Source: Eubacteriales bacterium
GTDB taxonomy: Bacteria > Bacillota > Clostridia > Oscillospirales > CAG-272
Direction of reading: 5' to 3'
Length of the DNA stretch: 64,000 nt
Assembly: GCA_045632345.1 (NCBI GenBank)
Contig: JAZQWM010000052.1
Location: forward strand, 5,229-69,228
This document shows, piece after piece, positions 1 through 18,340 of the stretch; position 1 is the first letter of the stretch, and every line of letters begins with the position of its first letter. Made by a program: the position numbers and the translations under genes. Below the pieces are notes generated by a model, which saw nothing but the letters and a program-made list of their open reading frames with translations, made no database searches and was not told the origin of the DNA.

Positions 1-914
1 TTGCTGAAATCGCAATCGCTGAGGGTGCAGACGCAATCTGCCACGGCTGTACAGGTAAGGGTAATGACCAAGTTCGTTTTGAGCTTACAATTAAGGCATT
101 CGCACCTGATATGCCAATTATCGCTCCATGGCGTGAGTGGACAATTAAGTCCCGTGAAGAGGAAATCGAATACGCAGAGGCTCACAACGTACCTCTTAAG
201 ATAAACCGTGAAACAAACTACTCAAAGGATAAGAACCTTTGGCACTTAAGCCACGAGGGACTTGACCTTGAGGATGCAGGCAACGAGCCACTTTACGAAA
301 AGGAAGGCTTCCTTGAAATGGGCGTTTCCCCATTACAAGCACCAGATAAACCAACATATGTTGAGCTTGACTTCGTTCAAGGTATTCCTGTTGCAATCAA
401 CGGCGAAAAAATGAGCGCTAAGAACATTATTTTAAAGCTTAACGAGCTCGGCGGAGCAAACGGTATCGGACTTCTCGACATCGTTGAAAACCGTCTTGTT
501 GGTATGAAGTGCCGCGGCGTTTATGAAACTCCAGGCGGAGCAATCCTTTACTTCGCACACAACTACCTTGAAACAATCTGCCTTGACAAAATGACAATGC
601 ACGAAAAGCAAAAGCTCTCAATCACATTTGCTGAGCTTGTATATAACGGTCAATGGTTTACACCACTTCGTGAGGCTCTTTCAGCATTTGTTGACAAGAC
701 ACAAGAGAACGTTACAGGTAAGGTAAGAATTAAGCTTTACAAGGGTAACATGATTAAGGCTGGCGTATGGAGCGACTATTCACTCTACTCAGAAGAAATC
801 GCAACGTTTGGTGAGGATAACGTTTACAACCAAGCAGACTCAGCTGGATTTATCAACCTATTCGGCTTACCAATCAAGGTTCAAGCTCAAGTTAACGCAA
901 AGAACAAGAAATAA
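1..914 (+). CDS. argG: argininosuccinate synthase, C-terminal part (5' end outside window)
   Basis: Frame 3 is open from the window edge ([28 protein letters not shown]...) and runs into the listed 111..914 ORF. ArgG-like sequence; first gene of a contiguous arg cluster. Confidence 0.9.
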
Positions 915-925
915 TTAATACCAAT

Positions 926-952
926 TTGCGATGGGTATTTTGCCCATCGCAA
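926..952 (+). other. perfect 10-bp hairpin between argG and argH (weak terminator/attenuator or processing site)
   Basis: TTGCGATGGG-TATTTTG-CCCATCGCAA; no clean U-tract follows. Confidence 0.35.
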
Positions 953-1000
953 TACGGCTTTATAAAAAGGCTAATTTCCTAAGTACGAAAGGACAAATTT

Positions 1001-2374: not shown

Positions 2375-3306
2375 GCAAAAAGAAAATTTTTATAGATGGA
2401 AAAGCAGGCACAACAGGACTTCGCATTGAGGAAAGACTGTCAAGCCGTGATGATATTGAAATCGTTACGTTACCTGATGAATTAAGAAAAGACCCGGAAG
2501 CTAAGAAAAAGGTACTTAACCAAGTAGATGTAGCATTTCTTTGCTTACCTGACCAAGCCGCTAAGGACTCAGTTGCGCTTATTGACAATCCAAACGTAGT
2601 TGTAATCGACACTTCAACCGCCCACAGAACAAATCCTGATTGGGCATACGGCTTTGCAGAGCTTGATAAATCCTTTGAAAATAAAATTAAAAATAGCAAG
2701 CGTATCGCAGTTCCTGGCTGTCATGCCAGCGGCTTTATCGCGCTTGTTTACCCACTTATTAAAAACGGAATTATCTCCCCCGATACACTCTTAACCTGCC
2801 ATTCAATTACAGGCTTTAGCGGTGGCGGTAAGAAAATGATTGAGGAATATAATAACGATGATAGATGCATATGCCTTGACGCTCCAAGACAGTACGGACT
2901 TACTCAAGCACATAAACACTTACCTGAAATGAGCAAAATCACAGGACTTAACAACCTTCCAATCTTTTGCCCAATCGTTTCCGATTTCTATTCAGGTATG
3001 GAGGTAACAGTCCCACTCTTTAAAAGTCAGCTTTTAAAGGGCGATATTGAAGCTATCAAGGAAATTTACAGAAACGCATATAATACTGAAATCGTATATT
3101 ACAAGGATAATTCAAGCGAAGAGGGCTTTTTAACCGCCAACGCTTTAAGCGGAAAAGACTCAATGCAAATTGAAGTGTTCGGCAACGAGGACAGAATTTT
3201 ATTAACCGCAAGATACGATAACTTAGGCAAGGGCGCATCAGGTGCCGCTGTTGAATGCTTAAATATTGTTTTAAACCAAGAAAAAACCAAAACTTTAGAG
3301 GTATAA
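2371..3306 (+). CDS. argC: N-acetyl-gamma-glutamyl-phosphate reductase (short type)
   Basis: 311 aa with GKAGTTG NAD motif and PGCHASG catalytic Cys region. 4-nt overlap with the argH stop. Confidence 0.9.
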   Translation: MSKKKIFIDGKAGTTGLRIEERLSSRDDIEIVTLPDELRKDPEAKKKVLNQVDVAFLCLPDQAAKDSVALIDNPNVVVIDTSTAHRTNPDWAYGFAELDKSFENKIKNSKRIAVPGCHASGFIALVYPLIKNGIISPDTLLTCHSITGFSGGGKKMIEEYNNDDRCICLDAPRQYGLTQAHKHLPEMSKITGLNNLPIFCPIVSDFYSGMEVTVPLFKSQLLKGDIEAIKEIYRNAYNTEIVYYKDNSSEEGFLTANALSGKDSMQIEVFGNEDRILLTARYDNLGKGASGAAVECLNIVLNQEKTKTLEV

Positions 3307-3307
3307 C

Positions 3308-4522
3308 ATGAAAATTATTGAAGGTGGAGTTTGCGCAGCACAAGGCTTTTTAGCAAGCGGTGTTCACTGTGGAATTCGTAAGAATAAGGAAAAGAGAGAT
3401 ATTGCACTTATCTATTCCCAAAAGAAAGCAACAGCTGCAGCAGTATATACAACTAACAAGGTTAAGGGCGCGCCTTTAACAGTAACTAAAAACAATATAG
3501 CAGACGGCTATGCTCAAGCAGTAATCTGTAATAGCGGTAACGCTAATACCTGTAATGCAAACGGTATTGAAATTGCAGAGCAAATGTGCGACCTTGTTGC
3601 AAAGGAATTGAATATTAGCGCAAAGGACGTTGTTGTAGCATCAACAGGCGTTATCGGTCAGCCTTTAAATATTGAGCCTATTGCAAAGGGCATTCCAATG
3701 CTTAAGGAGCAATTATCCCAGGACGGAAGCAAAAACGCAGCCGAGGGTATTATGACAACCGATACAAGATTAAAGGAATTATCCGTAAGCTTTGAGGTTG
3801 ATGGTGTAGAATGTAAAATTGGCGGTATTGCCAAGGGCTCAGGTATGATTCACCCTAATATGGCTACAATGCTTGTGTTTATTACAACAGACTGTAATAT
3901 TTCAGCTAAGATGCTTCAAAAGGCTTTATCAACAGATATTCAAAATACCTTCAATATGGTAAGCGTTGACGGAGATACCTCAACAAACGATATGGTAACA
4001 ATCCTAGCTAATGGTATGGCAGGCAATAAGGAAATCACAGAAGAAAATGAAGCATACAAAACCTTTATGGAAGCGCTTAACACGTTAACCGTTTATCTTT
4101 GCCGTAAAATCGCAGGAGACGGAGAGGGAGCAACAAAGCTTCTTGAATGTGAGGTTGAGGGTGCTTACGATGAAGCGAACGCTAAAATTATTGCAAAGAG
4201 CGTTATTTGCTCATCACTTGTAAAGAGCGCAATGTTTGGCTCTGACGCTAACTGGGGAAGAGTTTTATGCGCTATCGGTTATAGCGGAGCAACAGTAGAT
4301 GTAAATAAGGTATTTGTTTCCTTTAAATCTGCAAAGGGCGAAATCTCAGTTTGTGAAAACGGTGCAGGCGTAGATTTCTCTGAGGAAATCGCAAAGGAAA
4401 TTCTTTTAGAAGAGGAAATCACAATCAAAATTAAATTAGGCGACGGAAACGGCAATGCAGTAGCATGGGGCTGTGACTTAACCTATGATTATGTAAGAAT
4501 TAACGGAGATTATAGAACGTAA
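3308..4522 (+). CDS. argJ: bifunctional ornithine acetyltransferase / glutamate N-acetyltransferase
   Basis: 404 aa, ArgJ-like, including the autoproteolysis region ATMLVFITTD. Confidence 0.9.
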   Translation: MKIIEGGVCAAQGFLASGVHCGIRKNKEKRDIALIYSQKKATAAAVYTTNKVKGAPLTVTKNNIADGYAQAVICNSGNANTCNANGIEIAEQMCDLVAKELNISAKDVVVASTGVIGQPLNIEPIAKGIPMLKEQLSQDGSKNAAEGIMTTDTRLKELSVSFEVDGVECKIGGIAKGSGMIHPNMATMLVFITTDCNISAKMLQKALSTDIQNTFNMVSVDGDTSTNDMVTILANGMAGNKEITEENEAYKTFMEALNTLTVYLCRKIAGDGEGATKLLECEVEGAYDEANAKIIAKSVICSSLVKSAMFGSDANWGRVLCAIGYSGATVDVNKVFVSFKSAKGEISVCENGAGVDFSEEIAKEILLEEEITIKIKLGDGNGNAVAWGCDLTYDYVRINGDYRT

Positions 4523-5424
4523 TGGAACTTAGCAATTTACCACTTGGAATGACAAATGCTCAAAGAGCCGTAGTTTTAACACAAGCGCTTCCATATATTC
4601 AAAAGTACTATGGCAAGGTTGTAGTTATCAAATACGGCGGAAATGCTATGATTAACGAGCAATTAAAGGAACAAGTAATGGAAGACATTGTTCTTTTACA
4701 CCTTATCGGCGTTAAGGTTGTTTTAGTTCACGGCGGTGGACCGGAAATCACCGATACATTAAAGCAAATCGGCAAGGAAACTGTATTCGTTGACGGACTT
4801 CGTGTAACCGACGAGGAAACTATCGGCGTTGTGCAAATGGTTCTTGCAGGTAAAATTAACAAGAGTCTTGTAAATAAGCTTCAAATCAAGGGCGGTAAGG
4901 CTATCGGTATTTCAGGTCTTGACGGTCATATGATTCAAGCAGAAATGAAGGATAAGCGCCTTGGCTATGTTGGTAAAATCACAAACGTTGACGTTAAGCC
5001 AATTTGCGACCTTTTAGAAAAGGACTATATTCCTGTTGTATCAACCATCGGTTGCGACAAGGAGGGCAATGTATATAATATCAATGCAGATACAGCTGCC
5101 GCATTTATCGCAGGCGGTATGAACGCATCAAGACTTATTACAATGACTGATATTGAAGGTATTTTAATGGATAAGGATGACCATTCATCAATCATTCCAT
5201 GTATTGACCTTAAAATGGCAGATAAGCTCTTTAAGCACGAAATCATCAGTGGCGGTATGATACCTAAGGTTGAATGCTGTATTGATGCAATCCATAAGGG
5301 CGTTAAAAAGGTTACAATCCTTGACGGCCGTGTGCCACACGCATTGCTTATTGAAATGCTTACCGATGAGGGTGCTGGTACAATGTTTGTAAGAGATATG
5401 GATGAGGACAAAGATGGGCTTTAA
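4522..5424 (+). CDS. argB: acetylglutamate kinase
   Basis: 300 aa amino-acid kinase fold (VIKYGGNAM, VLVHGGGP). Confidence 0.92.
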   Translation: MELSNLPLGMTNAQRAVVLTQALPYIQKYYGKVVVIKYGGNAMINEQLKEQVMEDIVLLHLIGVKVVLVHGGGPEITDTLKQIGKETVFVDGLRVTDEETIGVVQMVLAGKINKSLVNKLQIKGGKAIGISGLDGHMIQAEMKDKRLGYVGKITNVDVKPICDLLEKDYIPVVSTIGCDKEGNVYNINADTAAAFIAGGMNASRLITMTDIEGILMDKDDHSSIIPCIDLKMADKLFKHEIISGGMIPKVECCIDAIHKGVKKVTILDGRVPHALLIEMLTDEGAGTMFVRDMDEDKDGL

Positions 5425-6583
5425 AAATATAGACAAGGAATATGTAGCTAATACATATGGTAGATTTGATTTAGAGCTAACCCACGGTAGTGGCTCCTTA
5501 GTTTACGATATAAACGGCAAGGAATATATTGACCTATCAACAGGAATTGCAGTAAATACCTTCGGTATTTCCGATACTGAATGGATAGGAGCTATAACTG
5601 AGCAGCTAAACAAGGTTCAGCATACCTCTAACCTTTACTATTCCGAGCCATGCGCCGTTCTTGCAAAAATGCTTTGCGAGGGCACAGGTGCAAAAAAAGT
5701 ATTTTTCTCAAACTCAGGCGCAGAGTCTAACGAGTGCGCAATTAAAGCCGCAAGACTTTGGGCAAGCGAAAATAAGGGCGAGGAATACTTTAATATTATC
5801 ACACTTAAAAACAGCTTTCACGGAAGAACAATTACAACACTTTCTGCCACAGGACAGGATGTTTTCCATAAGTACTTTAACCCATTAACAGGCGGCTTCC
5901 TTTATGCTGAGGCAAACAATCTTGATAGCGTTTGCGACCTTATAAAGAACAATAAATGCGCCGCTATTATGATGGAGCTTGTCCAAGGCGAGGGCGGAGT
6001 TATGGCTCTTAACCGGGACTTCGTTGACGGCGTATGCGCTCTTGCCAAGGAAAATAACATTTTAGTTATTATTGATGAGGTGCAAACGGGCAACGGTAGA
6101 ACAGGAGAGCTTTACGCTTTCCAAAGCTACGGAATTATACCTGACATTGTGTCAACTGCAAAGGGTCTTGCAGGCGGACTTCCTCTCGGCGCAACTCTAT
6201 TTTTCGATAAAACAGAGTTCACACTTAAAGCAGGACTTCACGGCTCAACCTTCGGCGGTAATCCTATTGCCTGTGCAGGTGCTATCAATATCCTATCAAG
6301 ACTTGATAGAGAAATGCTCGATAGCGTAAAATCAAAATCAAAGTATATCTTTGATAGCCTACAAAATGCAGAGGGTATTAAGAGTGTAAGTGGCTTAGGT
6401 CTTATGATAGGCATTGAAACCGAGGGAGATGCATCTGTAATTTTAGCAAAATGTATGGAAAAGGGCATTTTACCAATCAAGGCTAAAAACAAAATCAGAT
6501 TACTTCCTGCACTCAATATTCCAATGGACTTACTTGAAAAATCCATTAACATTATTAAAGAAACTGCTAAGGAGAATAAATAA
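5414..6583 (+). CDS. argD: acetylornithine aminotransferase
   Basis: Class III aminotransferase pattern ([28 protein letters not shown]). The ATG at 5414 has a GAGGA 5 nt upstream; the listed 5402 start is the alternative. Confidence 0.88.
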
Positions 6584-7569
6584 TGAACTTCTTAAAGGAA
6601 AAAGACTTTTTAAAGCTTCTTGATTTCACACCATGTGAAATCGGTAAGCTTATAGATTTAGCTGCTGAATTAAAGGCTAAAAAGAAAAACGGCGAGGCTC
6701 ACGATTATTGCAAGGGCAAGAATATCGCTTTAATATTTGAAAAAACAAGCACAAGAACAAGATGTAGCTTTGAGGTTGCCGCTCACGATTTAGGTATGGG
6801 CGTAACGTATCTTGACCCAACAGGCTCACAAATTGGTAAAAAGGAAAGTATTGCCGATACCGCAAGAGTTCTTGCTTCAATCTATGACGGCATCGAATAC
6901 CGTGGCTACGGTCAAGAAATTGTTGAGGAGCTTGCAAAATACTCCAAGGTGCCTGTATGGAATGGCTTAACAAACGAATTCCACCCAACACAAATCCTTG
7001 CTGACTTCTTAACAATTAAGGAGCATTTCGGCAAATTAAAAGGCATAAAGCTCGTATACATGGGCGATGCAAGATACAATATGGGTAACTCCTTAATGGT
7101 AGGATGCGCTAAAATGGGTCTTGACTTTGTTGCTTGCGCACCAAAGAAATATTTCCCAGACCAAGCATTAATTGATGCTTGCCAAGAAATCGCAAAGGAA
7201 ACAGGCGCAACTCTCTCATTTGAGGAAAATCCTGAAATTGCAGTTAAAAACGCAAATGTAATCTATACTGATGTATGGGTGTCAATGGGCGAGCCTATCG
7301 AGGTATGGCAGGAAAGAATTACCGACCTTGCTCCATACCAAGTAAATAGCGACATTATGAAAAAAGCCGACAAAAACGCCGTATTTATGCACTGTCTCCC
7401 TGCTTACCACGACCTTAAAACAGGCGTAGGAAAGGAAATGGGCGAAAAATTCGGCAGAGACTCAATGGAAGTAACTGATGAAGTGTTTGAAAGCGAGCAA
7501 TCAATCGTATTCCAAGAGGCAGAAAATCGTATGCACACCATCAAAGCAGTTATGCTTTCGACTTTATAA
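6583..7569 (+). CDS. argF: ornithine carbamoyltransferase
   Basis: 328 aa with STRTR, HPTQ and HCLP motifs. Last gene of the arg cluster. Confidence 0.9.
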
Positions 7570-7594
7570 GCTTCATATTGCGTCGTTGCTCCTC

Positions 7595-7677
7595 GTTGAC
7601 AACCTCAATGTACGCCAAGTACATTATCGCCTGTCAACTTCGGTGCGCCTAGCACTATTTTGCTTCTAAAACCGAAG
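7595..7677 (+). other. two stable hairpins in the argF 3' untranslated region
   Basis: GTTGACA..AATGTAC-GCCAA-GTACATT..TGTCAAC (7595-7638) and CTTCGGT...ACCGAAG (7638-7677). Both lie between the argF stop and the terminator. Confidence 0.3.
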
Positions 7678-7702
7678 GTGCACGTAAAATTAAGTATGAA
7701 TT

Positions 7703-7727
7703 AGCCACGCTTAGCGTGGCTTTTTTA
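7703..7727 (+). terminator. rho-independent terminator of the arg operon
   Basis: AGCCACGC-TTA-GCGTGGCT followed by TTTTTT. Confidence 0.8.
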
Positions 7728-7779
7728 TATTTGCTAACCTATGGTTGACAGATTTTATATAAAAGCAACCGCAGGTTAG

Positions 7780-7808
7780 TTGACATAAGCTATAATAAAT
7801 GCTAAAAT
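7780..7808 (+). promoter_or_regulatory. sigma-A type promoter
   Basis: TTGACA, 17 nt, TAAAAT with TG extended -10. Lies 27 nt upstream of the 7835 ORF. Confidence 0.55.
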
Positions 7809-7834
7809 AAAGAAAAAGCAAAGGAGTGTAGCAA

Positions 7835-8782
7835 ATGGAAATAAAATTTCGCAATAAAAAAATAGTTTACATATTATTATCAGTACCATGCTTGGCATTT
7901 TGTATTTTTTTAAATATGTTTTTTGTTCCTGCATTAATTTTTAGTATTGAAAGCCATAATTTACAAGAAATATTGTTTTGCTCACTAATGATTTTTATTT
8001 TCTTAATTGCTGGAGCTTTTGGCGTTTTTATTGCCTTACAAGCTATAAATCATCTTGTTCTTAAGGATGATTATATTGAAGGTTATTACAACGGAAAAAT
8101 CAAAATCTATTACAAGGATATAGAATGTATATCTACACATTTTGAACCAACGTTACCAAACTCTAATGAAATTTGCATTTTTTTGCATAACGGAAAAAGC
8201 TATCACATAACGAATGTAAAAAATATTGACGAGGTTTATAAAAAAGTATTTATAAGCTCTCCTAATTTAGCTAAAGATTATAATGATATAAAGGTTAGAA
8301 AAGAAAAAACATCAAAAGCATCAAAATCATATTATATATTGATTGCATCTCTTATAGTAATTATGTTTGTTGCTATATTTATTTGTGTCGGTTTAACAGG
8401 GGCAAGAGATATTCCTGAATTTAACGAAACCGATAAAATCATATTTACGTACTTTATAATCTTTGAAATTGTAACCGTTATAACATTGTTTTTAGTGGCA
8501 ATTTTAGGCGCAAAATATGTAAGAAATAAATGGGTATTTGATAATATGCTGCGCTATTTGAAAGCAAAGCAAGACAAAGATAAAAATCTTGAACAATATA
8601 CAGATAAATTATTATCTGTAAAATACAAATTTGACTATTCATTAAGACTTATTTTATACAGACAGGATGAAAAAGAATTGTTTGCGGTAGAATGGTATGT
8701 TGGAAACTCATGGCGAGGTTGCGTTGATGAATTTACAAATGATGATGAAACCGCAAAGAAATATTTTGAAAGTACACTTTGA
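7835..8782 (+). CDS. hypothetical multi-pass membrane protein
   Basis: 315 aa with several hydrophobic helices, AGGAG RBS, and its own promoter and terminator. Confidence 0.6.
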   Translation: MEIKFRNKKIVYILLSVPCLAFCIFLNMFFVPALIFSIESHNLQEILFCSLMIFIFLIAGAFGVFIALQAINHLVLKDDYIEGYYNGKIKIYYKDIECISTHFEPTLPNSNEICIFLHNGKSYHITNVKNIDEVYKKVFISSPNLAKDYNDIKVRKEKTSKASKSYYILIASLIVIMFVAIFICVGLTGARDIPEFNETDKIIFTYFIIFEIVTVITLFLVAILGAKYVRNKWVFDNMLRYLKAKQDKDKNLEQYTDKLLSVKYKFDYSLRLILYRQDEKELFAVEWYVGNSWRGCVDEFTNDDETAKKYFESTL

Positions 8783-8786
8783 TATA

Positions 8787-8822
8787 AAACCGCCAAAGCA
8801 TCTTACTTTGGCGGTTTTATTT
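8787..8822 (+). terminator. rho-independent terminator
   Basis: ACCGCCAAAG-CATCTTA-CTTTGGCGGT followed by a T-run. Confidence 0.8.
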
Positions 8823-8831
8823 ACCTTTTTC

Positions 8832-8860
8832 TTGAAATAATCATAATAATATGCTACAAT
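8832..8860 (+). promoter_or_regulatory. sigma-A type promoter of the GRE cluster
   Basis: TTGAAA, 17 nt, TACAAT with TG extended -10. Confidence 0.6.
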
Positions 8861-8887
8861 ATTTTTATGAAATAAAGGAGGTGCAAT

Positions 8888-11005
8888 ATGACAGAACGAA
8901 TTAAAATCTTAACCGACCTTACCTTACAGGGTAAAATGTATGTTGATACAGTTGATACCGAATACGAATACGATAGCACCTTAACCGAAAGTCAAAATGA
9001 TGTAAAGCATCTATGCAAATATATTGTAAATCAAGAGCCTAAAATAACCGAGCATTCCGCATTTTGTGGCTACTTTAATTTTGACGGTAGCGTTATAGGC
9101 GATGCTTTCAGACGCGGCGGACACAAAAACACGGATATTGCACTTCAAAAATATTACCTAAAGCCCATAGATAACCTTTCAACAATGGAATGGCAGCACG
9201 CCACAGCCGACTATAAGAAGGTACTTGAAAAGGGCATAATGGGCATTATAAGAGATATTAACCACTCTATAGAGCAACATACAGAGCCTAACGAAATTGA
9301 GTTTTTACAGTCCTTAAAAAGGGTAGCAGTAGCTCTTATTAGATGGACAGAAAAATGCGTAAAAAGGGTTAAAGAATTCGCAAGAAAAACATCTGACATA
9401 GAAGCGCGCAAAAGACTGAAAAATCTTGCAAATGCCCTTGAATATGCACCCAAAAACCCGCCAAGAACGTTTTACGAAGCTGTATTATCAATCTACGTGT
9501 GCTTTAGCGCCGACCCAGATAGCGTAGGCACTCTTGATAGATACCTAACACCATTTTACGAAAATGATATTGCAAACGGCACACTAACTGAGGACGAGGC
9601 CAAGGAATACTTACAGGAGCTATTTTTAATGCTCCAAGCATCAACACACATTTCCTCCCCTCACTTTACCCGTGGCGGTCAATCCCATTTTTGTATCGGT
9701 GGCTATCTACCAAACGGAGAGGATGGCTTTAATAACCTGTCAAGGCTCATCGTTGAAGCGTTAACCGAGCTTCCAACCTACATTCCACAAATAACATTCC
9801 GTTGGACTAAAAAAACTCCTAAAAGCGCACTATACTATATGATGGATAAGGAAAGACAGGACCCGCACAAGCGTATAGCATTTACCAACGATGAAAAGCG
9901 TATAAAATGCTACACTGAAATATGCGGTATTCCATACGAAAGAGCCGTTTCCTACACAATGGTAGGATGTAACGAGCCTGCATTTTTAGGTGCAATCACA
10001 GGTAGCACCTCAAAGGGCAATATCCTAAAATGTATTGAAACACTATTCCACGAAAAAAGCGAAATAGTAAAAAGCATCGACACATTTGAGGACTTTTACG
10101 CATTATTCGAAACAGAGCTATATTTCGACCTTAATAAAATTTATGCATATGACGATATGTATAACCTTGAAAGAGCCAAGGATATAAATTATATATCCAG
10201 CCTATTCTTTAATGATTGCATAGAAAATGCAAAAAGCCTAACCCAAGGCGGTGGCAACTACGTTATCGCATCTCCTATGCTAATAGGCATAACCAACGTT
10301 ATTGACTCTCTTTGCGTTATCAAGCAACTTGTCTATGACACGAAAACAATCTCCTTAAACGAGCTTATTTCAGCCTTAAAATCGAATTGGCAAGGCTACG
10401 AGGATATGCACACGCTAATAAACAAAAAATGTTGCTTTTTCGGTAATGATGATACGTCATCAAATCAAATCGCCATATTGCTTTATAATAGCCTTTACAC
10501 CTACTTAAAAAACAAGAAAAACGTATTCGGCTATCAATTTTTAGCAGGCGACCTTTTAGGCTACAACGAGCATCACAAATGGTTTGGCGAAAAAACAAAA
10601 GCTACACCAGATGGCAGATTTAACGGAGAAATGCTTAAATTTGGCATAGGACAAAGCGAATGTAAGGACAAAAACGGTCTTACCGCACTTCTTAATTCAA
10701 TAGCCAAATGCGATGAAAATGCAATTTCCTGTGGCTCAACCGTAACTAATATTTCATTAGATAAATCACTAATTGAAAATGAGGATAGCTTTAGAAAATT
10801 AGTGTACGTGTTTGAGGAATATTTTAAACAGGGTGGCACACATTTTCAGCTTACCTATGTGTCAAGCGAGGATTTAATCAACGCCCAAAAATCCCCTAAG
10901 GATTACCAAAATCTAAGAGTAAGAGTTACAGGCTTTTCAGATTATTTTGTAAATCTTAAGGAAAGCATACAAAACGATATTATTAAAAGGACTGAGCAAA
11001 AATGA
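8888..11005 (+). CDS. glycyl radical enzyme, PFL2/dehydratase-lyase-like, unusually short
   Basis: 705 aa. C-terminal glycyl radical motif RVRVTGFSDYF and Cys loop MVGCNEPAF (Cys-x-Glu). Confidence 0.85.
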   Translation: MTERIKILTDLTLQGKMYVDTVDTEYEYDSTLTESQNDVKHLCKYIVNQEPKITEHSAFCGYFNFDGSVIGDAFRRGGHKNTDIALQKYYLKPIDNLSTMEWQHATADYKKVLEKGIMGIIRDINHSIEQHTEPNEIEFLQSLKRVAVALIRWTEKCVKRVKEFARKTSDIEARKRLKNLANALEYAPKNPPRTFYEAVLSIYVCFSADPDSVGTLDRYLTPFYENDIANGTLTEDEAKEYLQELFLMLQASTHISSPHFTRGGQSHFCIGGYLPNGEDGFNNLSRLIVEALTELPTYIPQITFRWTKKTPKSALYYMMDKERQDPHKRIAFTNDEKRIKCYTEICGIPYERAVSYTMVGCNEPAFLGAITGSTSKGNILKCIETLFHEKSEIVKSIDTFEDFYALFETELYFDLNKIYAYDDMYNLERAKDINYISSLFFNDCIENAKSLTQGGGNYVIASPMLIGITNVIDSLCVIKQLVYDTKTISLNELISALKSNWQGYEDMHTLINKKCCFFGNDDTSSNQIAILLYNSLYTYLKNKKNVFGYQFLAGDLLGYNEHHKWFGEKTKATPDGRFNGEMLKFGIGQSECKDKNGLTALLNSIAKCDENAISCGSTVTNISLDKSLIENEDSFRKLVYVFEEYFKQGGTHFQLTYVSSEDLINAQKSPKDYQNLRVRVTGFSDYFVNLKESIQNDIIKRTEQK

Positions 11006-12375
11006 TAAACTCAAAAATTCATAAATACATAGAGGAAAATAGAGAAGCGATTTTAAAGGACTATATTGACCTTCTTAAAATTCCATCAATTAGCGACACA
11101 GAGGAAGCAAAAAACGCCCTCAAATTCTTAAAGGGCAGATATGAAGAATACGGCTTTGAATGTGAGCTATATGATGACTACCTATTATCACACTTTAAAA
11201 ACGGCAAAAAAACAATAGGACTTTTCGCCCACGCCGATGTAGTGCCTGTTGATGACGGATGGACTATAACCAACCCATTTGAGCCTAAAATAGTAAACGG
11301 CGACCTTTTTGCAAGAGGTGCATCTGATGATAAAAGCGCGGTAATTATTTCCCTTTATGCTTTAAGAGCAATTAAGGAATTAAATATCCCATTTAATTCA
11401 TCCCTTGTTTGCTTTGCGGGAGCAAATGAGGAAACAACAATGCAGGATTTGAAAAGCTATATAAAAACACACACTCCCCCGGACTTTTCCTTGGTTTTAG
11501 ATGCGGGATTTCCTGTTTACTATGGAGATAAGGGAATGCTATGGCTAATGCTTACGTTTAATGATAGCAATTTTGAGGACCTTATTGACCTAAGCGGCGG
11601 TAATACCTATAACATCATTTTAGGCGAAGCAAACGGTAAGGTGAAATATTCCGAAGAGCTTTACAACGAGCTTTTAGCAAACGAAAGAATCACAGTATCT
11701 AAAAAAGATGACGTTATCGAAATACACGCCAAGGGAATTTCAAGCCATGGCGCTATGCCTTATAATAGCATAAATGCTGGTGGCGTAATCATAGAAGCGC
11801 TTTGTAACGCAAAATCATTTAGCCAAAAGGACAAGGAGCAGCTACTATTCCCACTTGCAATTTTAACCACCTATGACGGCGAAATCTTGAATATTAAATC
11901 CGAGGACGAAATATACAGAGACACAACCGCATCAACCGGTATCTTAAAAGTAGAAAACGGCAAGCTAAAATTGTCTCTTGACATCCGCTACGGCAAAACC
12001 TTTACACCTGAAACGTTAATTTCTCAGCTACAATCAACGTTTGAAAAGAAGAACGTTATCTTTGAGATTGCAAAAAGCAATGCTCCGCATCATACAAGTA
12101 TTGAAAACAAGCACATACACGCTTGCATGAAGGCGTATAGAGACCACACAGGCAGATTAGATGCTCAGCCTCGCATAAATGCAGGCGGAACGTATCTCCG
12201 TTTCTTACCAAACTGTATAGAGACAGGCACAACAACCAAGCATTGTGTAACACCACTACCAAGCGGACACGGCACCGCCCACCAAAGAGATGAGTGTATG
12301 AATTTAGAGGGCTTCTTTGAAGGACTAGAAATTATTATAAAAATGATTATTGAATGCGACAAAACAGATAATTAG
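11002..12375 (+). CDS. M20 family dipeptidase (PepV/Sapep-like)
   Basis: 457 aa with HADVVP and GASDDK motifs. ATGA start/stop overlap with the GRE gene. Confidence 0.8.
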   Translation: MINSKIHKYIEENREAILKDYIDLLKIPSISDTEEAKNALKFLKGRYEEYGFECELYDDYLLSHFKNGKKTIGLFAHADVVPVDDGWTITNPFEPKIVNGDLFARGASDDKSAVIISLYALRAIKELNIPFNSSLVCFAGANEETTMQDLKSYIKTHTPPDFSLVLDAGFPVYYGDKGMLWLMLTFNDSNFEDLIDLSGGNTYNIILGEANGKVKYSEELYNELLANERITVSKKDDVIEIHAKGISSHGAMPYNSINAGGVIIEALCNAKSFSQKDKEQLLFPLAILTTYDGEILNIKSEDEIYRDTTASTGILKVENGKLKLSLDIRYGKTFTPETLISQLQSTFEKKNVIFEIAKSNAPHHTSIENKHIHACMKAYRDHTGRLDAQPRINAGGTYLRFLPNCIETGTTTKHCVTPLPSGHGTAHQRDECMNLEGFFEGLEIIIKMIIECDKTDN

Positions 12376-12390
12376 AAAGGAAGTATCACC

Positions 12391-13227
12391 ATAAAAGCAA
12401 CAATATTTGATATTCAAAGATGCTCTCTTGTTGACGGCGAGGGAGTACGCACAACAGTATTTTTTAAAGGGTGTAACCTTAACTGTAAATGGTGTCATAA
12501 CCCCGAAGGAATTTCCAAAAGCATTCAAAAGCTATTTTATAAAAGCAAATGCACCGAGTGCGGCAAATGCAAAAGCGTATGCGAAAGCAATCAAAAATCC
12601 TGTACCCTGTGTGGCAAATGTCAGCTTTATTGTGTAAATAACGCCATAGAAATCTGTGGTAAGGAATACACAGTAAGCGAAATTTTTGATATTATATCAA
12701 CTGATAAGCATTACTACGTATCATCAAACGGCGGAGTAACATTTTCAGGCGGAGAATGTATGCTTCAAATTGATTTTCTTACCGAAATATTAAAGCTCTG
12801 TAAGGAAAATAATATAAGCACCGCAGTTGATACCGCAGGCAACGTACCTTACGAATATTTTGAAAAAATCATTCCGTATACCGATACGTTTTTGTACGAT
12901 GTTAAATGTATAACGGAAGAACTGCACAAGGAGTTTACAGGCGTTTCAAATACCCAAATCCTATCAAATCTACAAAAATTATCTGCTAACTTTAACGGTA
13001 AAATAACAGTTAGAGTCCCAATAATCGGCGGTTTTAACGACACAGATGGCGAGATTTTGAAAATAAAGAGCTTTTTGTCTGACTTAAACATCTCAAATAT
13101 TGAGCTTTCACCATATCACAAAATGGGGCTTCATAAATACGAAGCACTCAATTTAAAAATAGCAGAATTTTACGAAATTCCAAAGGATAAATTAAACCGC
13201 TTTAGCGTTTTAATGTCACCTAAATAA
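12391..13227 (+). CDS. glycyl-radical enzyme activating protein (radical SAM); no canonical start codon
   Basis: Reading frame is open from 12376. It encodes IFDIQRCSLVDGEGVRTTVFFKGCNLNCKWCHNPE (CX3CX2C) plus two ferredoxin-like Cys clusters. First ATG/GTG/TTG in frame is 12760, downstream of the cluster. The ATA at 12391 sits 7 nt after AGAAAGGAAG. Confidence 0.8.
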   Translation: MKATIFDIQRCSLVDGEGVRTTVFFKGCNLNCKWCHNPEGISKSIQKLFYKSKCTECGKCKSVCESNQKSCTLCGKCQLYCVNNAIEICGKEYTVSEIFDIISTDKHYYVSSNGGVTFSGGECMLQIDFLTEILKLCKENNISTAVDTAGNVPYEYFEKIIPYTDTFLYDVKCITEELHKEFTGVSNTQILSNLQKLSANFNGKITVRVPIIGGFNDTDGEILKIKSFLSDLNISNIELSPYHKMGLHKYEALNLKIAEFYEIPKDKLNRFSVLMSPK

Positions 13228-13233
13228 AAAACA

Positions 13234-13260
13234 AATCGCAGAGCAAAATGCTCTGCGATT
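13234..13260. terminator. bidirectional terminator between the activase and asd
   Basis: AATCGCAGAGC-AAAAT-GCTCTGCGATT flanked by an A-run and a T-run. Confidence 0.8.
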
Positions 13261-13269
13261 GTTTTTATA

Positions 13270-14271
13270 TTACTTAATAAGTTCCTCAGCAATTTGAATA
13301 GCGTTTGTAGCAGCGCCCTTTCTTACTTGGTCGCCACAGCACCAAAGCGTGATAGCGTTATCAAATACAAGGTCCTCTCTAATTCTACCAACGTAAACAA
13401 GGTCTTGATCAGACGTTACGATTGGCATTGGATATTCCTTAGCTTCGCCGTTGTCATAAAGCTTACAGCCCTTTGCGTTAGCAACTGCCTCTCTTACTTG
13501 GTCAACTGTTAATTTGTCCTCTGTGAGAACAGTTACAGAAATTGAGTGTGAACGAACAACAGGAACTCTGACACATGTGCAAGTAACCTTTAACTCAGGT
13601 AAGTGAAGGATCTTTCTACCTTCATTTTGCATCTTCATTTCCTCAGCAGTAAAGCCGTTTGCGCCGAATGAACCGATGTGTGGAATTACGTTTTCAGCAA
13701 TTTGGTGTACAAACACTTCATTCTTAATTTCGCCACCGTTAATAAGAGCGCTTTCTTGGTCGCGAAGCTCAACAGGACCGCCTGCTCCTGCACCACTTGT
13801 TGCTTGATATGTTGAAGCAATCATGCCCTTAATCTTTGAAAGCTGATTGATAGCGTTTACAGCTACTAAAGTAATAATAGTAGAGCAGTTAGGGTTAGAG
13901 ATAATACCCTTATTCTTCTTAACGTCCTCGCCGTTAATTTCTGGAACTACTAGTGGAACGTCATCGCACATTCTAAATGCGCTTGAGTTGTCAACGAAAA
14001 CTGCGCCAGCCTTTACAATGTCAGGAGCAAGCTCCTTTGCAACAGCATTTGAAGCTGCGCCAAGAACAATATCAAGTCCCTCAAATGCGCCAACCTCAGC
14101 AAGCTTAACCTCAATTTCCTCGCCCTTGAAAGCGATTTTCTTACCAACGCTTCTTGGACTTGCAAGTAATCTTAATTCATTAATAGGGAAGTTTCTTTCC
14201 TCTAAGATATTCATCATTTCACGGCCAACTGCACCGGTTGCACCTAAAATACCAACGTTATACTTTTTCAT
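13270..14271 (-). CDS. asd: aspartate-semialdehyde dehydrogenase
   Basis: 333 aa with GATGAVG and SNPNCST active-site Cys. Confidence 0.92.
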   Translation of the reverse strand: MKKYNVGILGATGAVGREMMNILEERNFPINELRLLASPRSVGKKIAFKGEEIEVKLAEVGAFEGLDIVLGAASNAVAKELAPDIVKAGAVFVDNSSAFRMCDDVPLVVPEINGEDVKKNKGIISNPNCSTIITLVAVNAINQLSKIKGMIASTYQATSGAGAGGPVELRDQESALINGGEIKNEVFVHQIAENVIPHIGSFGANGFTAEEMKMQNEGRKILHLPELKVTCTCVRVPVVRSHSISVTVLTEDKLTVDQVREAVANAKGCKLYDNGEAKEYPMPIVTSDQDLVYVGRIREDLVFDNAITLWCCGDQVRKGAATNAIQIAEELIK

Positions 14272-15599
14272 TATTCATTTACCTCGCTTAAGTTATAAAG
14301 AACTTTAATTGTTTTCTTAAAGTTAATATCGTCAACACCGATAATAATATTAATTTCATCTGCACCCTGCTCAATCATTCTAATATTGATATCATTTTCG
14401 CCAAGTGCTGTAAAGATTTTACCTGCAATACCAATATTGCAAGCGAGCTTTCTTCCAACGATAGCAATTAAGCTGATTTCATTTGCAATATTAATTGAAT
14501 CTGGCTTTAATCTGTCATTTAATGCAGAAATAAGCTCATGCATAATACCCTCAATATGATTTGAAGCAACTACAACAGAGAATGAGTCAATAGATGAAGG
14601 GATATGCTCGATTGGAATTTGGAAGTTCTCAAATACCTCAAGAGCCTTTCTTACGTAGCCGATTTCCTCATTCATTCTATTCTTTGCAATAGTAATGATA
14701 GAGTAATTCTTCTTACCTGAAATACCTGTGATAAAGTGCTTGTTCTTGTTTTCCTCATCCTCATCAAAGGATTCCATAATAAGAGTACCGCGAGCGTTCA
14801 TATCGTTAGTATTCTTAATAAATAAAGGAATATTCTTTTGTCTTACAGGGAATACAGTTTCCTCATGAAGAACCTCAGCGCCCATGTATGAAAGCTCACG
14901 AAGCTCAGCAAAGGTAACGTTTTCAATAGGTCTTGGATTTTCAACGATTCTTGGGTCAGCAGTCATAATACCGCTAACGTCAGTCCAGTTTTCGTACATG
15001 TCAACGTTCATAGCAGCCGCTGCAATAGCACCTGTAATATCAGAGCCACCTCTTGAGAATGTCTTGATGTTTCCGTCAGGAGTTGCGCCGTAGAAGCCTG
15101 GAAGAACTACCTTTGGATATGTTTCCATAATCTTTGAAAGATTATCGTAAGATTTATCAAAATCAACCTTGCCGTTATAGTTAAATACAAGCCATTCTGC
15201 GCTATCAACAAATGTGTAGCCAAGATATTCAGCCATAAGCTTTGCGTTTAAGTATTCGCCTCTTGAAACGATGTAATCAACGCTTGTTTTCTTTGAAAGC
15301 GTAGAGCGAATCTTTAAAAACTCAGTTTCAATATCCTGTGTAAGACCGCAGGAAGCATGAATTTCTCTGTATCTGTCCTCAATCTTTGAAATAACGTCAT
15401 CAAATGGAGCATTGTACTTAATATGCGCATGGCAAATATAAAGTAAGTCAGTTACCTTTGTGTCTCCGCTGAATCTCTTACCTGGAGCAGATACTACGAC
15501 AATTCTTCTTGAATTGTCAGCCTCAATAATTTTCTTTACCTTATTAAATGTTTCACCTGAGGCAAGAGATGAACCACCGAATTTTACTACCTTCAACAT
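14271..15599 (-). CDS. lysC: aspartate kinase
   Basis: 442 aa with VVKFGGSS N-terminus and a C-terminal ACT-like region. Confidence 0.9.
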   Translation of the reverse strand: MLKVVKFGGSSLASGETFNKVKKIIEADNSRRIVVVSAPGKRFSGDTKVTDLLYICHAHIKYNAPFDDVISKIEDRYREIHASCGLTQDIETEFLKIRSTLSKKTSVDYIVSRGEYLNAKLMAEYLGYTFVDSAEWLVFNYNGKVDFDKSYDNLSKIMETYPKVVLPGFYGATPDGNIKTFSRGGSDITGAIAAAAMNVDMYENWTDVSGIMTADPRIVENPRPIENVTFAELRELSYMGAEVLHEETVFPVRQKNIPLFIKNTNDMNARGTLIMESFDEDEENKNKHFITGISGKKNYSIITIAKNRMNEEIGYVRKALEVFENFQIPIEHIPSSIDSFSVVVASNHIEGIMHELISALNDRLKPDSINIANEISLIAIVGRKLACNIGIAGKIFTALGENDINIRMIEQGADEINIIIGVDDINFKKTIKVLYNLSEVNE

Positions 15600-15602
15600 A
15601 AA

Positions 15603-16748
15603 TTATTCCTCAATTCCCGCATAGAATGAAGCAGGATCCTTTTCTGTAATAGTTTTAGCAATTTCATGCATATAGGAAACAGAAATTTCATTTGTTAAAA
15701 TATATCTGCTACCGTTAATTGTTTCCTCACTCTCAAAGCAAGGATAAGATACGTCGCTGTTTGTTCTAATATAATATTTTCTCATAACTAACGAATTATC
15801 CACGTTTAACGCTTTGTCCTCAAATCTAACTGAACGAGCGCCGTTTACAATATCAATAATATCCTGAGCAAGAGCGTTACCTGTAGGATACTTACCTGCG
15901 CCCTGACCGTAGAATGAAAGACGTCCAACACTTTCGCCAAAGAGAGTAATCATGTTGAAATTCTTGTTAACGTTAGATTCTAACGCATCGCTTGATAAAA
16001 GCGTAGGCTCAACGAAAGTAGAAACACCGGTTTCACTCTTAACGCCAAAGCCGAGATATCTTACAGTCTTATTAAGCTTTCCAACTATATATTCTATGTC
16101 GCATTTTTTAATTGTGCGCATAGTAAATATGGAAACGTCGCTTTCCTTAACAACCGAGCCAAAGGCTATTGAAGAGGAAATAGCAGTTTTTCTGCCTGTA
16201 TCAAGACCGTCAACGTCAGCTGATGGATTAGCCTCAGCATAGCCAAGAGATTGCGCTTCCTTTAATACGTCATCAAAATCACGCTTGTCCGTAATCATAG
16301 CGTCAAGAATAAAGTTGGTAGTACCGTTCATTATTCCCATAATTTTGTTGATTTCGTCGCAACGAATACTTCTTTTAATATTGTATAACCAAGGAATACC
16401 GCCACCAACAGCAGAGGTGAAGCGAATAGTAACGCCGTTTTCCTTAGCAAGATTATGAAGCTCCTCAAAATATTCGCAAATTAAATGCTTGTTTGAGCTT
16501 ACTACGTGCTTGCCGGCTTTAAGAGCCTTAACCACAAACGTATGTGATGGTTCAAGACCGCCAATAGCTTCTGCAACAATCTCAATTTCCTTATCATTTA
16601 ATATATCGTCATAGTTTGAGGTAACCTTATCGCCGAGTTCCGGATGGGGACGAATATCAAGAATTCTTTTTACGTCGTAGCCGTACTTTGAAAGCACCTC
16701 AAAAGCGCCTGAACCAACCACTCCGTAGCCGAGAATTGCTATTTTCAT
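15603..16748 (-). CDS. hom: homoserine dehydrogenase
   Basis: MKIAILGYGVVGSG start at 16748. The listed ORF extends 23 codons further upstream without homology. Confidence 0.88.
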   Translation of the reverse strand: MKIAILGYGVVGSGAFEVLSKYGYDVKRILDIRPHPELGDKVTSNYDDILNDKEIEIVAEAIGGLEPSHTFVVKALKAGKHVVSSNKHLICEYFEELHNLAKENGVTIRFTSAVGGGIPWLYNIKRSIRCDEINKIMGIMNGTTNFILDAMITDKRDFDDVLKEAQSLGYAEANPSADVDGLDTGRKTAISSSIAFGSVVKESDVSIFTMRTIKKCDIEYIVGKLNKTVRYLGFGVKSETGVSTFVEPTLLSSDALESNVNKNFNMITLFGESVGRLSFYGQGAGKYPTGNALAQDIIDIVNGARSVRFEDKALNVDNSLVMRKYYIRTNSDVSYPCFESEETINGSRYILTNEISVSYMHEIAKTITEKDPASFYAGIEE

Positions 16749-16852
16749 AAAAAATTTTACCTTTCTTGTGTCTTTATTTGAAAAACACTTGTATTTTGTT
16801 GAGAAATAGTGTATCATATATAAAACAAAAAATCAAGAGGTATTTTTAAAAA

Positions 16853-18340
16853 ATGTGGTATTTAAGTACAAGAAATCAAAAAATTCAAAAAACACCGTCT
16901 CAAGCGGTGCTTCAAGGCATAGCTGATGACGGCGGATTATATATGCCAAAGAGCTTTGATAGCGCAAAATTTCCAATGGATAAGCTTATAAGCTTATCAA
17001 ATAAGGAAATCTCCGCAACAGTTCTTTCATTATTATTCAGCGATGACAAAATGTTCAACAATAATTTTGACGAGGCTTTAGCAGCAGTATCCCGTGCTTA
17101 TGACGGAAAATTTGATAATGAGGACTTCGCTCCACTCTCAAAGGTAGGCGACGCTTACGTTATGGAATTATATCACGGTCCAACGTGTGCATTTAAGGAT
17201 GTAGCTCTCCAGCTTCTTCCACAGCTTGTTGCTTGCGCAAAGAAAGCAACTGACATGAAGGATGAAATCGTAATTTTAACTGCAACAAGCGGCGATACAG
17301 GAAGCGCAGCGCTTTCAGGCTTTAGCGATGTTGACGGTGTTAAAATCATCGTATTCTATCCTAAGAAGGGCATCAGCGCAGTTCAAGAAAGACAAATGGT
17401 TTCAGTTGACGGCAAAAACACATGCGTAGTTTCCGTAAACGGCAACTTTGATGATGCTCAAAGCGGTGTTAAGAATATTTTCGCAACGTTAGAGCTTCCG
17501 GAGAGCGTTAAACTTTCAAGCGCTAACTCTATAAATATAGGAAGACTTGCTCCACAGGTAGCATACTACTTCAAAACATATCGCGACCTACTTTTAAACG
17601 ACGCTATCAAAATGGGCGATAAGGTTAACTTTATCGTTCCAACAGGTAACTTCGGCGATATTTTAGCAGGCTACTTCGCAAAGCAAATGGGCTTACCGGT
17701 TGGTCAGCTTGTTTGCGCATCTAACGAAAATAAGGTTCTTACCGATTTCTTTGAAAACGGTGTATATAATAAGAACAGAGAATTCCACGTTACAAAATCT
17801 CCATCAATGGATATTCTTATCTCCTCTAACCTTGAAAGACTTCTTTATTTAACCTGCGGAGCTGAAAAGTGCGCTCACTATATGGCAGAGTTAAAGGAAA
17901 AGGGCGAATATAAGCTTACAAAGGAAGAGCTTGACAAGATAAGAAGCGAATTTGATGCAGGCTTTACAAATGACGAGGAAACTCTTGAAACTATCAAAAA
18001 TGTTTACGAAAACCACGGATACTTAATGGATACCCATACAGCAGTAGCTTGGAGCGTTTATGAAAAATGGGTTAAGGAAACAGGAAATAAGGATGTTAGC
18101 GTTGTTCTTTCCACAGCATCTCCATATAAGTTCTCATCAAGCGTAATGAACGCGCTTGGCAAGGACTACGAGGACGAGTTTGATGCAGTAAATAAGCTTA
18201 ACGCATATACAGGCGCTAAAATCCCATCCTCACTTGTTGACATTGAAAATAAGCCAATCGTGCACAACGTAACAGTTGAAAAGGAAGATATGCTCTCCTT
18301 CGTTGGCTCAATGGTAGCAAAAAAGGTTTGGAGAGACTAA
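16853..18340 (+). CDS. thrC: threonine synthase
   Basis: 495 aa with PLP lysine context CAFKD. Divergent from hom. Confidence 0.92.
   Translation: MWYLSTRNQKIQKTPSQAVLQGIADDGGLYMPKSFDSAKFPMDKLISLSNKEISATVLSLLFSDDKMFNNNFDEALAAVSRAYDGKFDNEDFAPLSKVGDAYVMELYHGPTCAFKDVALQLLPQLVACAKKATDMKDEIVILTATSGDTGSAALSGFSDVDGVKIIVFYPKKGISAVQERQMVSVDGKNTCVVSVNGNFDDAQSGVKNIFATLELPESVKLSSANSINIGRLAPQVAYYFKTYRDLLLNDAIKMGDKVNFIVPTGNFGDILAGYFAKQMGLPVGQLVCASNENKVLTDFFENGVYNKNREFHVTKSPSMDILISSNLERLLYLTCGAEKCAHYMAELKEKGEYKLTKEELDKIRSEFDAGFTNDEETLETIKNVYENHGYLMDTHTAVAWSVYEKWVKETGNKDVSVVLSTASPYKFSSSVMNALGKDYEDEFDAVNKLNAYTGAKIPSSLVDIENKPIVHNVTVEKEDMLSFVGSMVAKKVWRD

Follow-up and report, generated by a model that had tools for sequence, protein, structure and literature searches.

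A compact glycyl radical enzyme encoded in one operon with an M20 metallohydrolase and its activase

The subject of this report is a three-gene locus in a 64,000-nucleotide (nt) stretch of contig JAZQWM010000052.1 (assembly GCA_045632345.1, an Eubacteriales bacterium of the CAG-272 lineage), which as a whole we call the window. According to the list of open reading frames (ORFs), the genes lie on the + strand within positions 8888-13227 and encode, in this order, a glycyl radical enzyme (GRE), a metallohydrolase of the M20 peptidase family and the predicted activase of the GRE. Coordinates are positions in the window, on the + strand unless stated otherwise; WIN denotes the window copy of the locus, G000 the window's own genome, and handles beginning with L the loci of relatives. 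The genes and the signals that border them are as follows.

8784-8820, + strand: terminator-like hairpin that closes a preceding membrane-protein gene and forms the upstream border of the operon; 15-pair stem with 6 GC pairs, then a T run
8832-8860, + strand: promoter-like site, TTGAAA, 17-nt spacer, TACAAT, with TG ahead of the second hexamer; 10/12 consensus matches
8888-11005, + strand: compact GRE, 705 amino acids (aa), from domain and family scans and an AlphaFold2 model
11002-11005, + strand: ATGA overlap of the GRE TGA and the M20 ATG (translational coupling), from reading the sequence
11002-12375, + strand: Sapep/PepV-type M20 metallohydrolase, 457 aa, from family and domain scans and catalytic residues
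12391-13227, + strand: GRE-activating radical S-adenosylmethionine enzyme, 278 aa, ATA start, from TIGR02494, motifs and family alignment
13234-13260, both strands: bidirectional terminator-like hairpin at the shared end of the operon and the convergent asd gene; 12-pair stem, 6 GC pairs, T runs on both strands

The promoter-like site, a consensus match only, lies 28 nt 5' of the GRE start, and AAGGAGGT is present at 8876-8883 ahead of that start at 8888; the M20 and activase genes are separated by a 15-nt spacer. The promoter and terminator signals are consensus matches, yet they frame exactly three genes, and at the level of sequence the GRE, M20 and activase genes are confirmed as a real three-gene operon that would form one transcription unit. 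Contigs from a bovine-gut metatranscriptome, 90-97% like the window, cover the 3' end of the GRE gene, most of the M20 gene and part of the activase gene, and span the M20-activase junction (11982-12503); coming from relatives and possibly from DNA carry-over, they are a weak hint that operons of this kind are expressed and not proof of a transcript. The best-matching sequencing runs are animal gut metagenomes according to their records, and because the best share of sampled words is at most 0.30, they contain relatives rather than the window strain.

A sequence-only reading of this DNA had described a GRE with the glycyl motif RVRVTGFSDYF and a GCNEP Cys-x-Glu (CXE) loop, about 100 residues shorter than its relatives, overlapping by ATGA at 11002-11005 with a PepV/Sapep-type M20 peptidase and followed by an activase with two auxiliary Fe-S motifs. 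These identifications are borne out, with the start of the activase corrected to the ATA at 12391. The glycyl motif occupies residues 677-687, which by position makes G682 the radical glycine, and the Cys loop occupies residues 360-364 and contains C361-N362-E363. Both Pfam domains of the GRE scored above their cut-offs (PFL-like PF02901, 297 bits; Gly_radical PF01228, 70.5 bits against a cut-off of 22.2), and membership of the PFL-like division of the GRE superfamily follows from the glycyl domain, the barrel with its catalytic Cys and the nearby cognate activase, all of which were found. Among 33 family sequences G682, C361 and N362 are invariant and E363 is present in at least 90%; Val stands at the position of N362 in glycerol dehydratase and HypD. 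In HMMER alignments C361 and E363 fall on C433 and E435 of glycerol dehydratase and on C434 and E436 of HypD, and H104 falls on His164 of glycerol dehydratase, a His common to eliminases and isomerases. As a motif, C361-N362-E363 is the CXE of the 1,2-eliminases and isomerases, in which E363 is predicted to take the part of the Glu. According to a 2026 superfamily review, all 1,2-eliminases and the three isomerases keep the CXE, with the Glu hydrogen-bonded to the substrate hydroxyl.

The GRE, an oxygen-sensitive enzyme, is unusually compact: its 705 aa compare with 764-850 for the solved eliminases and isomerases, so that it is 60-145 residues shorter depending on the comparator, and the earlier estimate of about 100 was roughly right. 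Residues 103-704 span positions 156-784 of the 786-position TIGR01774 model (PFL2/glycerol dehydratase subfamily, PFL2-3), about 53 positions of which are absent at the N-terminus and about 27 internally, and every match to a solved GRE (E 5e-64 and weaker) begins only near residue 100. The score against TIGR01774 was 298 bits, with the curated cut-off of 678.2 not reached; neither the HypD model NF043068 (270 bits, cut-off 1100) nor the CutC model TIGR04394 (223 bits, cut-off 1050) reached its cut-off, and the same holds for HpsG NF048011 (266 bits), HpfG NF048009 (245), PflD-type NF007437 (220), and IAD, HPAD and PFL (218, 179 and 79 bits; equivalog cut-offs 994-1150). An AlphaFold2 model of the GRE, built on the 33 family sequences, had a pLDDT of 92.2 and a pTM of 0.91. 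With this model Foldseek found HplG, glycerol dehydratase, propanediol dehydratase, CutC, HypD, HpyG and HpzG about equally well (query-normalised TM 0.81-0.84, identity 21-24%), the top match being HplG (7VUA), and the TM was 0.84 to HplG, glycerol dehydratase, propanediol dehydratase and CutC alike; going by the predicted fold, no single solved enzyme stands out as the counterpart of the GRE. Because the CXE and the His are kept, no NCBIfam cut-off is reached and no fold match stands out, the GRE probably works like a CXE-type eliminase or isomerase while not being a member of a named enzyme family.

The closest solved systems define both the likeness and the distance. By sequence the best match is the B12-independent glycerol dehydratase of Clostridium butyricum (1R8W/1R9D; E 5e-64 over GRE residues 104-704), which shares the Cys-x-Glu loop, the His164 equivalent, the glycyl motif and a TIGR02494-type activase with two extra cluster motifs. 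It differs in that identity is 24%, its 787 aa exceed those of the window GRE, and the window GRE has a shorter loop with D211-S212 for His281-Ser282; diol-pathway genes are lacking, and a dipeptidase-type hydrolase sits in the operon instead. HypD (6VXC), HpyG (8ID1), HpzG (8IOF) and HplG gave comparable scores (E 8.5e-63 to 5.3e-61). The substrates of these hydroxyproline-type GREs are amino acids derived from peptides, in keeping with a peptidase as partner, but no proline-pathway genes adjoin the window operon, and both the GRE and the activase fall below the HypD cut-offs. In the HypD alignment Tyr450 is replaced by K376 and Asp278 lies near D209 in the shorter loop; we take Tyr450 and Asp278 to be ligand residues of HypD.

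These matches would favour the explanation that the GRE simply belongs to a characterised group, such as glycerol or propanediol dehydratase or HypD, has been trimmed at its N-terminus and has no new function, since glycerol dehydratase, HypD, HpyG, HplG and propanediol dehydratase are the best matches in sequence and fold and the CXE and His are kept. We consider this very improbable. The best NCBIfam scores (PFL2-3, HypD and CutC models) amount to 21-44% of the cut-offs, identity in the fold search is low, the GRE falls into a separate clade (see below), N362 is invariant where glycerol dehydratase and HypD have Val, and family scans of the window found no diol-utilisation or proline-reductase genes nearby. 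Moreover, three residues that we take to be ligand residues of glycerol dehydratase are replaced in the alignment, His281 by an invariant D211, Asp447 by S373 and Tyr640 by an invariant G558.

The aligned pocket segments of the GRE contain the acidic D209 and D211 and the basic K376, which would fit an amino-acid-like substrate but do not prove it, and, going by the alignment, the pocket of the compact enzyme is probably lined with small polar residues. Two kinds of candidate were considered and set aside. IslA-type sulfonate binding, and with it a C-S lyase activity, appears unlikely, as the CGSTVTN strand, which aligns with the R678 region of IslA, has no Arg; the R678 data come from the 2026 review. 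Homoserine (from acyl-homoserine lactones) and pantoate are disfavoured because in neither does the hydroxyl stand vicinal to the leaving group. Sugar acids and muramic acid derivatives are further conceivable substrates. Elsewhere in G000, contigs C50 (57307-57627) and C8 (117587-117895) carry two further GREs; their open frames encode 761 and 848 aa, and an activase-like gene adjoins each.

The compact GRE belongs to a sizeable family. A word-indexed protein search gave 2006 matches among the 8000 candidates sharing most words; among the matches listed, as 120 clusters at 90% identity, protein lengths run from 698 to 714 aa and identities to the window GRE from 66 to 96%, and the proteins are named only 'hypothetical protein' or 'pyruvate formate lyase family protein'. 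In an exhaustive search of 50%-identity representatives, full-length short relatives extended to about 33% identity (P0122-P0126, P0134, P0135, P0137, P0141), below which lies the general GRE continuum at about 30%. A scan of 400 sampled Clostridia genomes at E<=1e-100 detected a compact GRE in 26 of them and in 21 of the 217 genera. The ESM Atlas homologue P0075 led only to unnamed PFL-like clusters, some of them labelled Lentisphaerota and Spirochaetota. In a quick maximum-likelihood tree of 57 rows with SH-aLRT support, whose outgroups include few named enzymes (the HypD, CutC and glycerol dehydratase sequences were left out), the short GREs form one clade (100 SH-aLRT) apart from the 11 canonical-length representatives, among them an HpsG equivalog and several sequences above the PFL2-3 cut-off; NCBIfam labelling of the 52 longest of 150 representatives gave one equivalog, P0268, which is HpsG. 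Within the short GREs, clade I comprises 19 rows including the window (99 SH-aLRT) and contains all hydrolase-rich operons, while a sister clade of 15 rows consists mostly of SDR-GRE-activase operons. As judged from the sequences, the GRE clade is thus an uncharacterised, monophyletic group of about 700 aa, new within a well-known superfamily.

On two points of novelty the sequence-only reading has held up. It had raised a possible new function, and the GRE clusters with no enzyme of known substrate, whether by family models, fold or phylogeny. It had also not recognised the GRE-peptidase-activase operon among characterised systems. Full-text searches of the literature, with subscription-only papers outside their scope, found no GRE with a peptidase, lactonase or esterase partner and no compact GRE clade, and the June 2026 superfamily review likewise yielded no GRE-peptidase system, the sole occurrence of 'M20' in it belonging to a DOI among its references. 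Two preprints on metal-dependent bile salt hydrolases (PMC13081902 and PMC13081988) cite GREs for taurine metabolism only; the enzymes of PMC13081988 belong to Amidohydro_3, not M20. Bile salt hydrolases serve as an analogy only.

The second gene of the operon encodes a Sapep/PepV-type M20 protein. It scored 228 bits against the Sapep subfamily model TIGR01887, above the cut-off of 207.95, but did not reach the PepV equivalog cut-offs (NF005591, 253 against 435; TIGR01886, 210 against 632). Its metal and catalytic residues are complete (H77, D79, D109, E143, E144, D167, H249, R329 and H427), including the His and Arg of the lid domain, H249 and R329. The closest solved structures are Sapep (Staphylococcus aureus SACOL1801, 3KHX; E 1.9e-34) and PepV (Lactobacillus delbrueckii, 1LFW). 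R329 aligns with an Arg that differs between two deposited Sapep sequences (RY vs AY) and that was mutated in the Sapep variant structure; the equivalent Arg in Sapep and PepV presumably binds the C-terminal carboxylate of the substrate. Unlike Sapep and PepV, for which we know of no GRE context, the window M20 gene is translationally coupled to that of a radical enzyme.

The third gene product scored 298 bits against TIGR02494 (cut-off 174) and, as its best-scoring model, 306 bits against the HypD activase NF043069, whose cut-off of 425 it did not reach. It carries a CX3CX2C motif at residues 28-35 and two CX2CX2CX3C motifs, the auxiliary Fe-S motifs, at 54-64 and 71-81. Its frame is open from 12376 and has no ATG, GTG or TTG before 12760; the ATA at 12391, with GGAAGT 7 nt upstream, is the start that fits both the family alignment and a Shine-Dalgarno sequence. 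Noncanonical starts are found as ATA in WIN (12391-12393), L001 (11504) and L004 (3544) and as ATC in L003 (8571), with a good Shine-Dalgarno sequence 7 nt upstream, and L002 has GTG at the same column. Among 32 family activase starts, ATG, GTG or TTG stands at or beside the aligned position in 28, and these four are the exceptions. The noncanonical codons appear to be conserved as weak starts, in keeping with an enzyme that is required in catalytic amounts only.

To place the operon in context we compared 45 loci, namely the window, 16 from a genome-contig scan and 28 from whole genomes. The constant parts are the activase and the GRE, which comes first in the operon at every locus. Of the 36 loci with a readable upstream side, 30 have a divergent AraC-family regulator there; it is lacking in the window and in L001, L002, L006, L007 and L073. 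The gene right after the GRE stop varies: it may be an M20, a PLL-type lactonase, a beta-propeller, a CapA-like gene or an SDR, or there may be none, and further accessory genes in or beside the operon encode an AcmB-like esterase of beta-lactamase fold, GDSL esterases, a CE4 deacetylase and two SDR types. The phosphotriesterase-family (PTE) partner is closest to lactonase-type enzymes of Sulfolobus (E 1.4e-41); the 342-aa beta-propeller partner had no PDB sequence match and only a sub-threshold match to DUF6923; and for the CapA-like PGA_cap partner the sole NCBIfam match was the peptide epimerase MslH, at 62 bits vs 700. This CapA/MslH-like protein stands beside M20 in L010 and L064, which would fit an amino-acid-like substrate, though not prove it. 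So would the co-occurrence of M20 and PTE in L064 and L067, which is as expected if the two catalyse consecutive steps.

The predicted pocket columns of the GRE stay constant while the partner changes. Across 60 alignment columns picked from in and near the aligned active-site segments, WHADY, SADPDS, HCGGYLP, GCNEPAFGAITGSTSKN and CGSTVTN are essentially constant in 18 rows of at least 59% identity, whether M20, PTE, propeller, CapA-like protein, SDR or no gene follows; the first copy in L063 and the copy in L069 are the two clade-I copies with deviating columns. The SDR-linked clade has WHSDF, GCNE(I/L)A, GGIVFGFDPN and TGPSVTN. The exchange is seen most directly between L004 (1-4468) and L005 (7965-11975). 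Up to the GRE stop, 2155 bp of their DNA match at 99.07% identity; the slot that follows holds M20 in one and PTE in the other, with no similarity; and the activase genes are again 88.6% identical over 849 bp, so that a recombination breakpoint lies exactly at the GRE stop/ATGA. Junction sequences show the ATGA overlap joining the GRE stop to M20 of both types described below, PTE, SDR or activase (ATGTTAA in L066). Since the same overlap occurs with such different genes, the coupling is a property of the junction that marks the point of cassette exchange. The GRE-M20 coupling on which the sequence-only reading had laid weight is therefore real as an ATGA but generic to the GRE stop and whatever gene follows.

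M20 adjacency is recurrent and not unique to the window's genome, a point on which the sequence-only reading had hung, but it is not obligatory. An M20 gene is present at 12 of the 23 clade-I GRE copies with a readable downstream side. Type A M20s occur in WIN and L001-L004, the latter four being 66-97% identical to that of the window; type B M20s, about 38-42% identical to it, occur in L010, L062, L063 (second copy), L064, L066, L067 and L068. Translational coupling of M20 was read from the junctions in WIN, L001-L004, L062, L063 and L066. All 11 full-length GRE-linked M20s, of both types, fall into one clade (97 SH-aLRT), and the M20 and GRE trees agree in the groupings within type A (WIN, L001-L004) and of L062 with L063, which fits long joint inheritance. 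The window lineage has its own character among these relatives: it is without the AraC regulator, lies behind an arginine operon, starts its activase at ATA, and carries with type A a sub-branch of M20 distinct from the type seen with CapA-like genes.

From these observations we propose, as a reading to which we give about an even chance, that the operon would be a compact GRE system in which M20 frees the small, polar, hydroxylated substrate of the GRE from an amide conjugate. For the GRE the steps are those of established GRE chemistry. The activase would place the radical on G682; the C361 thiyl radical would take a hydrogen from the carbinol carbon of the substrate; E363 would deprotonate the substrate hydroxyl; the adjoining C-O or C-N bond would break, by elimination or ring opening; and C361 would give the hydrogen back. 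The neighbourhoods suggest that M20 would release the substrate from an amide conjugate with a free carboxylate, a dipeptide or an N-acyl amino acid, and that in other genomes this part would fall to lactonases and esterases, acting on lactone or ester forms. Starting weakly at ATA, the activase would be held at catalytic amounts. Since the 99%-identical GREs of L004 and L005 carry swapped hydrolases, this pair can be regarded as a natural experiment indicating that one GRE substrate arrives from different conjugates.

Several observations weigh against this proposal, and part of them speak for an alternative that we judge unlikely, in which M20 is a passenger, that is, a general cytoplasmic dipeptidase in a recombination-prone slot with no metabolic tie to the GRE. 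As M20 is the only PepV/Sapep-type match, to itself, in G000, it may have a general dipeptidase role. The M20 clade rests on a quick tree of 30 M20 proteins with SH-aLRT support only, and besides the GRE-linked proteins it holds eight unlinked ones, all from a single genus (g90), with the other unlinked M20s falling outside; the one g90 gene that was inspected stands beside a PHP-domain gene and ATP synthase genes, that is, housekeeping genes. M20 is absent from 11 of the 23 clade-I operons and from every operon of the SDR-linked sister clade, and at E<=1e-50 an M20 homologue is missing from 18 of the 26 GRE-bearing genomes. The counts include close kin (window/L001, L066/L068, L007/L008) and are not independent. 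In addition, the slot accepts many unrelated genes across a generic ATGA junction; the mixture of amidase, lactonase, esterases, SDR, CE4 and CapA-like proteins has no single obvious common substrate; gene order does not reveal whether hydrolysis precedes or follows the GRE reaction; and among 186 flanking ORFs of the 45 loci, which fell into 163 clusters, no conserved transporter or pathway genes surround the cassette, the recurring clusters comprising either arginine-operon genes, in close kin of the window, or neighbours common to near-identical genomes.

Against M20 as a passenger stands its distribution. At E<=1e-50 an M20 homologue turned up in only 25 of 399 Clostridia genomes, and because 374 have none, M20 is not a universal housekeeping gene. 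In six of the eight GRE-bearing genomes that do have one (G000, G081, G103, G246, G292 and G360) it sits inside the GRE operon, and the GRE-linked M20s keep their position, and in the loci named above their coupling, across 38-97% identity. Furthermore, the other genes in the slot or adjacent to it are not random but encode small-molecule hydrolases, reductases or their relatives, with the CapA-like and beta-propeller proteins unassigned. The claim of the sequence-only reading that the peptidase frees the GRE substrate has therefore gained from the recurrence of the adjacency, but it remains an inference, given relatives with the same pocket columns that carry a lactonase, a propeller, an SDR or nothing; M20 supplying the GRE substrate is plausible but unproven.

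A further alternative reverses the order of the steps: the GRE would first open or rearrange a ring or conjugate, in the manner of the isomerases HplG, YbiW and PflD, and M20, lactonase or esterase would then hydrolyse the product. The GRE is the first gene at every locus, HplG is the closest fold match, and SDRs, which usually act on carbonyl products, are frequent partners; GRE isomerases that give hydrolysable or reducible products are also known from the literature. This order nevertheless seems to us quite improbable. The pocket columns are the same whether the partner cleaves amides, lactones or esters or is absent, which makes one small hydrolysis product as the GRE substrate easier to explain than one GRE product that needs different hydrolases, and the pocket of the compact enzyme appears to be lined with small polar residues. 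Going beyond the proposal that hydrolysis precedes the radical step, we put forward more tentatively, as a possibility we would not yet favour, that the GRE performs a C-O or C-N radical cleavage new to GREs on a small hydroxylated amino-acid-like compound. The slot would then make the GRE a common funnel for amides (M20), lactones (PLL-type, beta-propeller) and esters (AcmB-like, GDSL), and the CapA/MslH-like protein may adjust stereochemistry.

The flanks of the operon in the window contain the following features.

111-7569, + strand: arginine biosynthesis operon argG-H-C-J-B-D-F, from family scans
7780-7808, + strand: promoter-like site of the membrane-protein gene; 11/12 consensus matches
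7835-8782, + strand: membrane-protein gene, 315 aa; no Pfam or NCBIfam match
13270-18340, - strand: convergent block of asd, aspartate kinase and homoserine dehydrogenase, then thrC, from family scans

The arginine-operon neighbour is common to WIN, L001 and L002, with argF 98-99% identical. The region of the membrane-protein gene is AT-rich (GC 0.289 in 8001-9000). As this gene is missing in L002 and is skipped in the DNA contigs of two runs (joints 7728 to 8874/8880), it represents an insertion that, in this lineage, separates the arginine operon from the GRE cassette. Over 7400-13400, Rfam revealed no riboswitch or leader RNA, the single match being sub-threshold (27 vs 97 bits) and lying over a terminator.

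Eight of the 45 loci carry a second, different and uncharacterised GRE, separated from the compact one by no more than a few kb. These second GREs are 24-30% identical and, where complete, about 730 aa long; where the flank is readable they mostly have their own activase and AraC regulator, and two that were scanned reached no NCBIfam cut-off. They are located as follows.

L010, 13861-16856: second GRE near the compact GRE
L012, 4222-8100: second GRE near the compact GRE
L063, 1275-3095: second GRE near the compact GRE
L065, 90-2938: second GRE near the compact GRE
L069, 9502-12347: second GRE near the compact GRE
L078, 94-2103: second GRE near the compact GRE
L083, 7433-9241: second GRE near the compact GRE
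L084, 2-637: second GRE near the compact GRE

Adjacent split pieces were seen for the CapA-like gene in L064 (2547-3692), the activase in L078 (4707-5491) and the GRE in L089 (5051-7435), and represent either assembly frameshifts or decayed genes.

To our knowledge, every GRE whose substrate has been found so far has opened a piece of anaerobic gut chemistry, such as the conversion of choline to trimethylamine, the use of hydroxyproline, the conversion of isethionate to sulfide, and anhydro-sugars. The clade described here, present in 26 of the 400 Clostridia genomes and structurally distinct in that it is about 80 residues shorter, has no assigned substrate, and its accessory hydrolases, together with the AraC regulators of the relatives, offer practical handles that bypass the difficult activation of the GRE. 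If the more tentative reading is true, gut Clostridia would possess in these operons a modular catabolic cassette of the type 'deprotect, then radical-cleave'.

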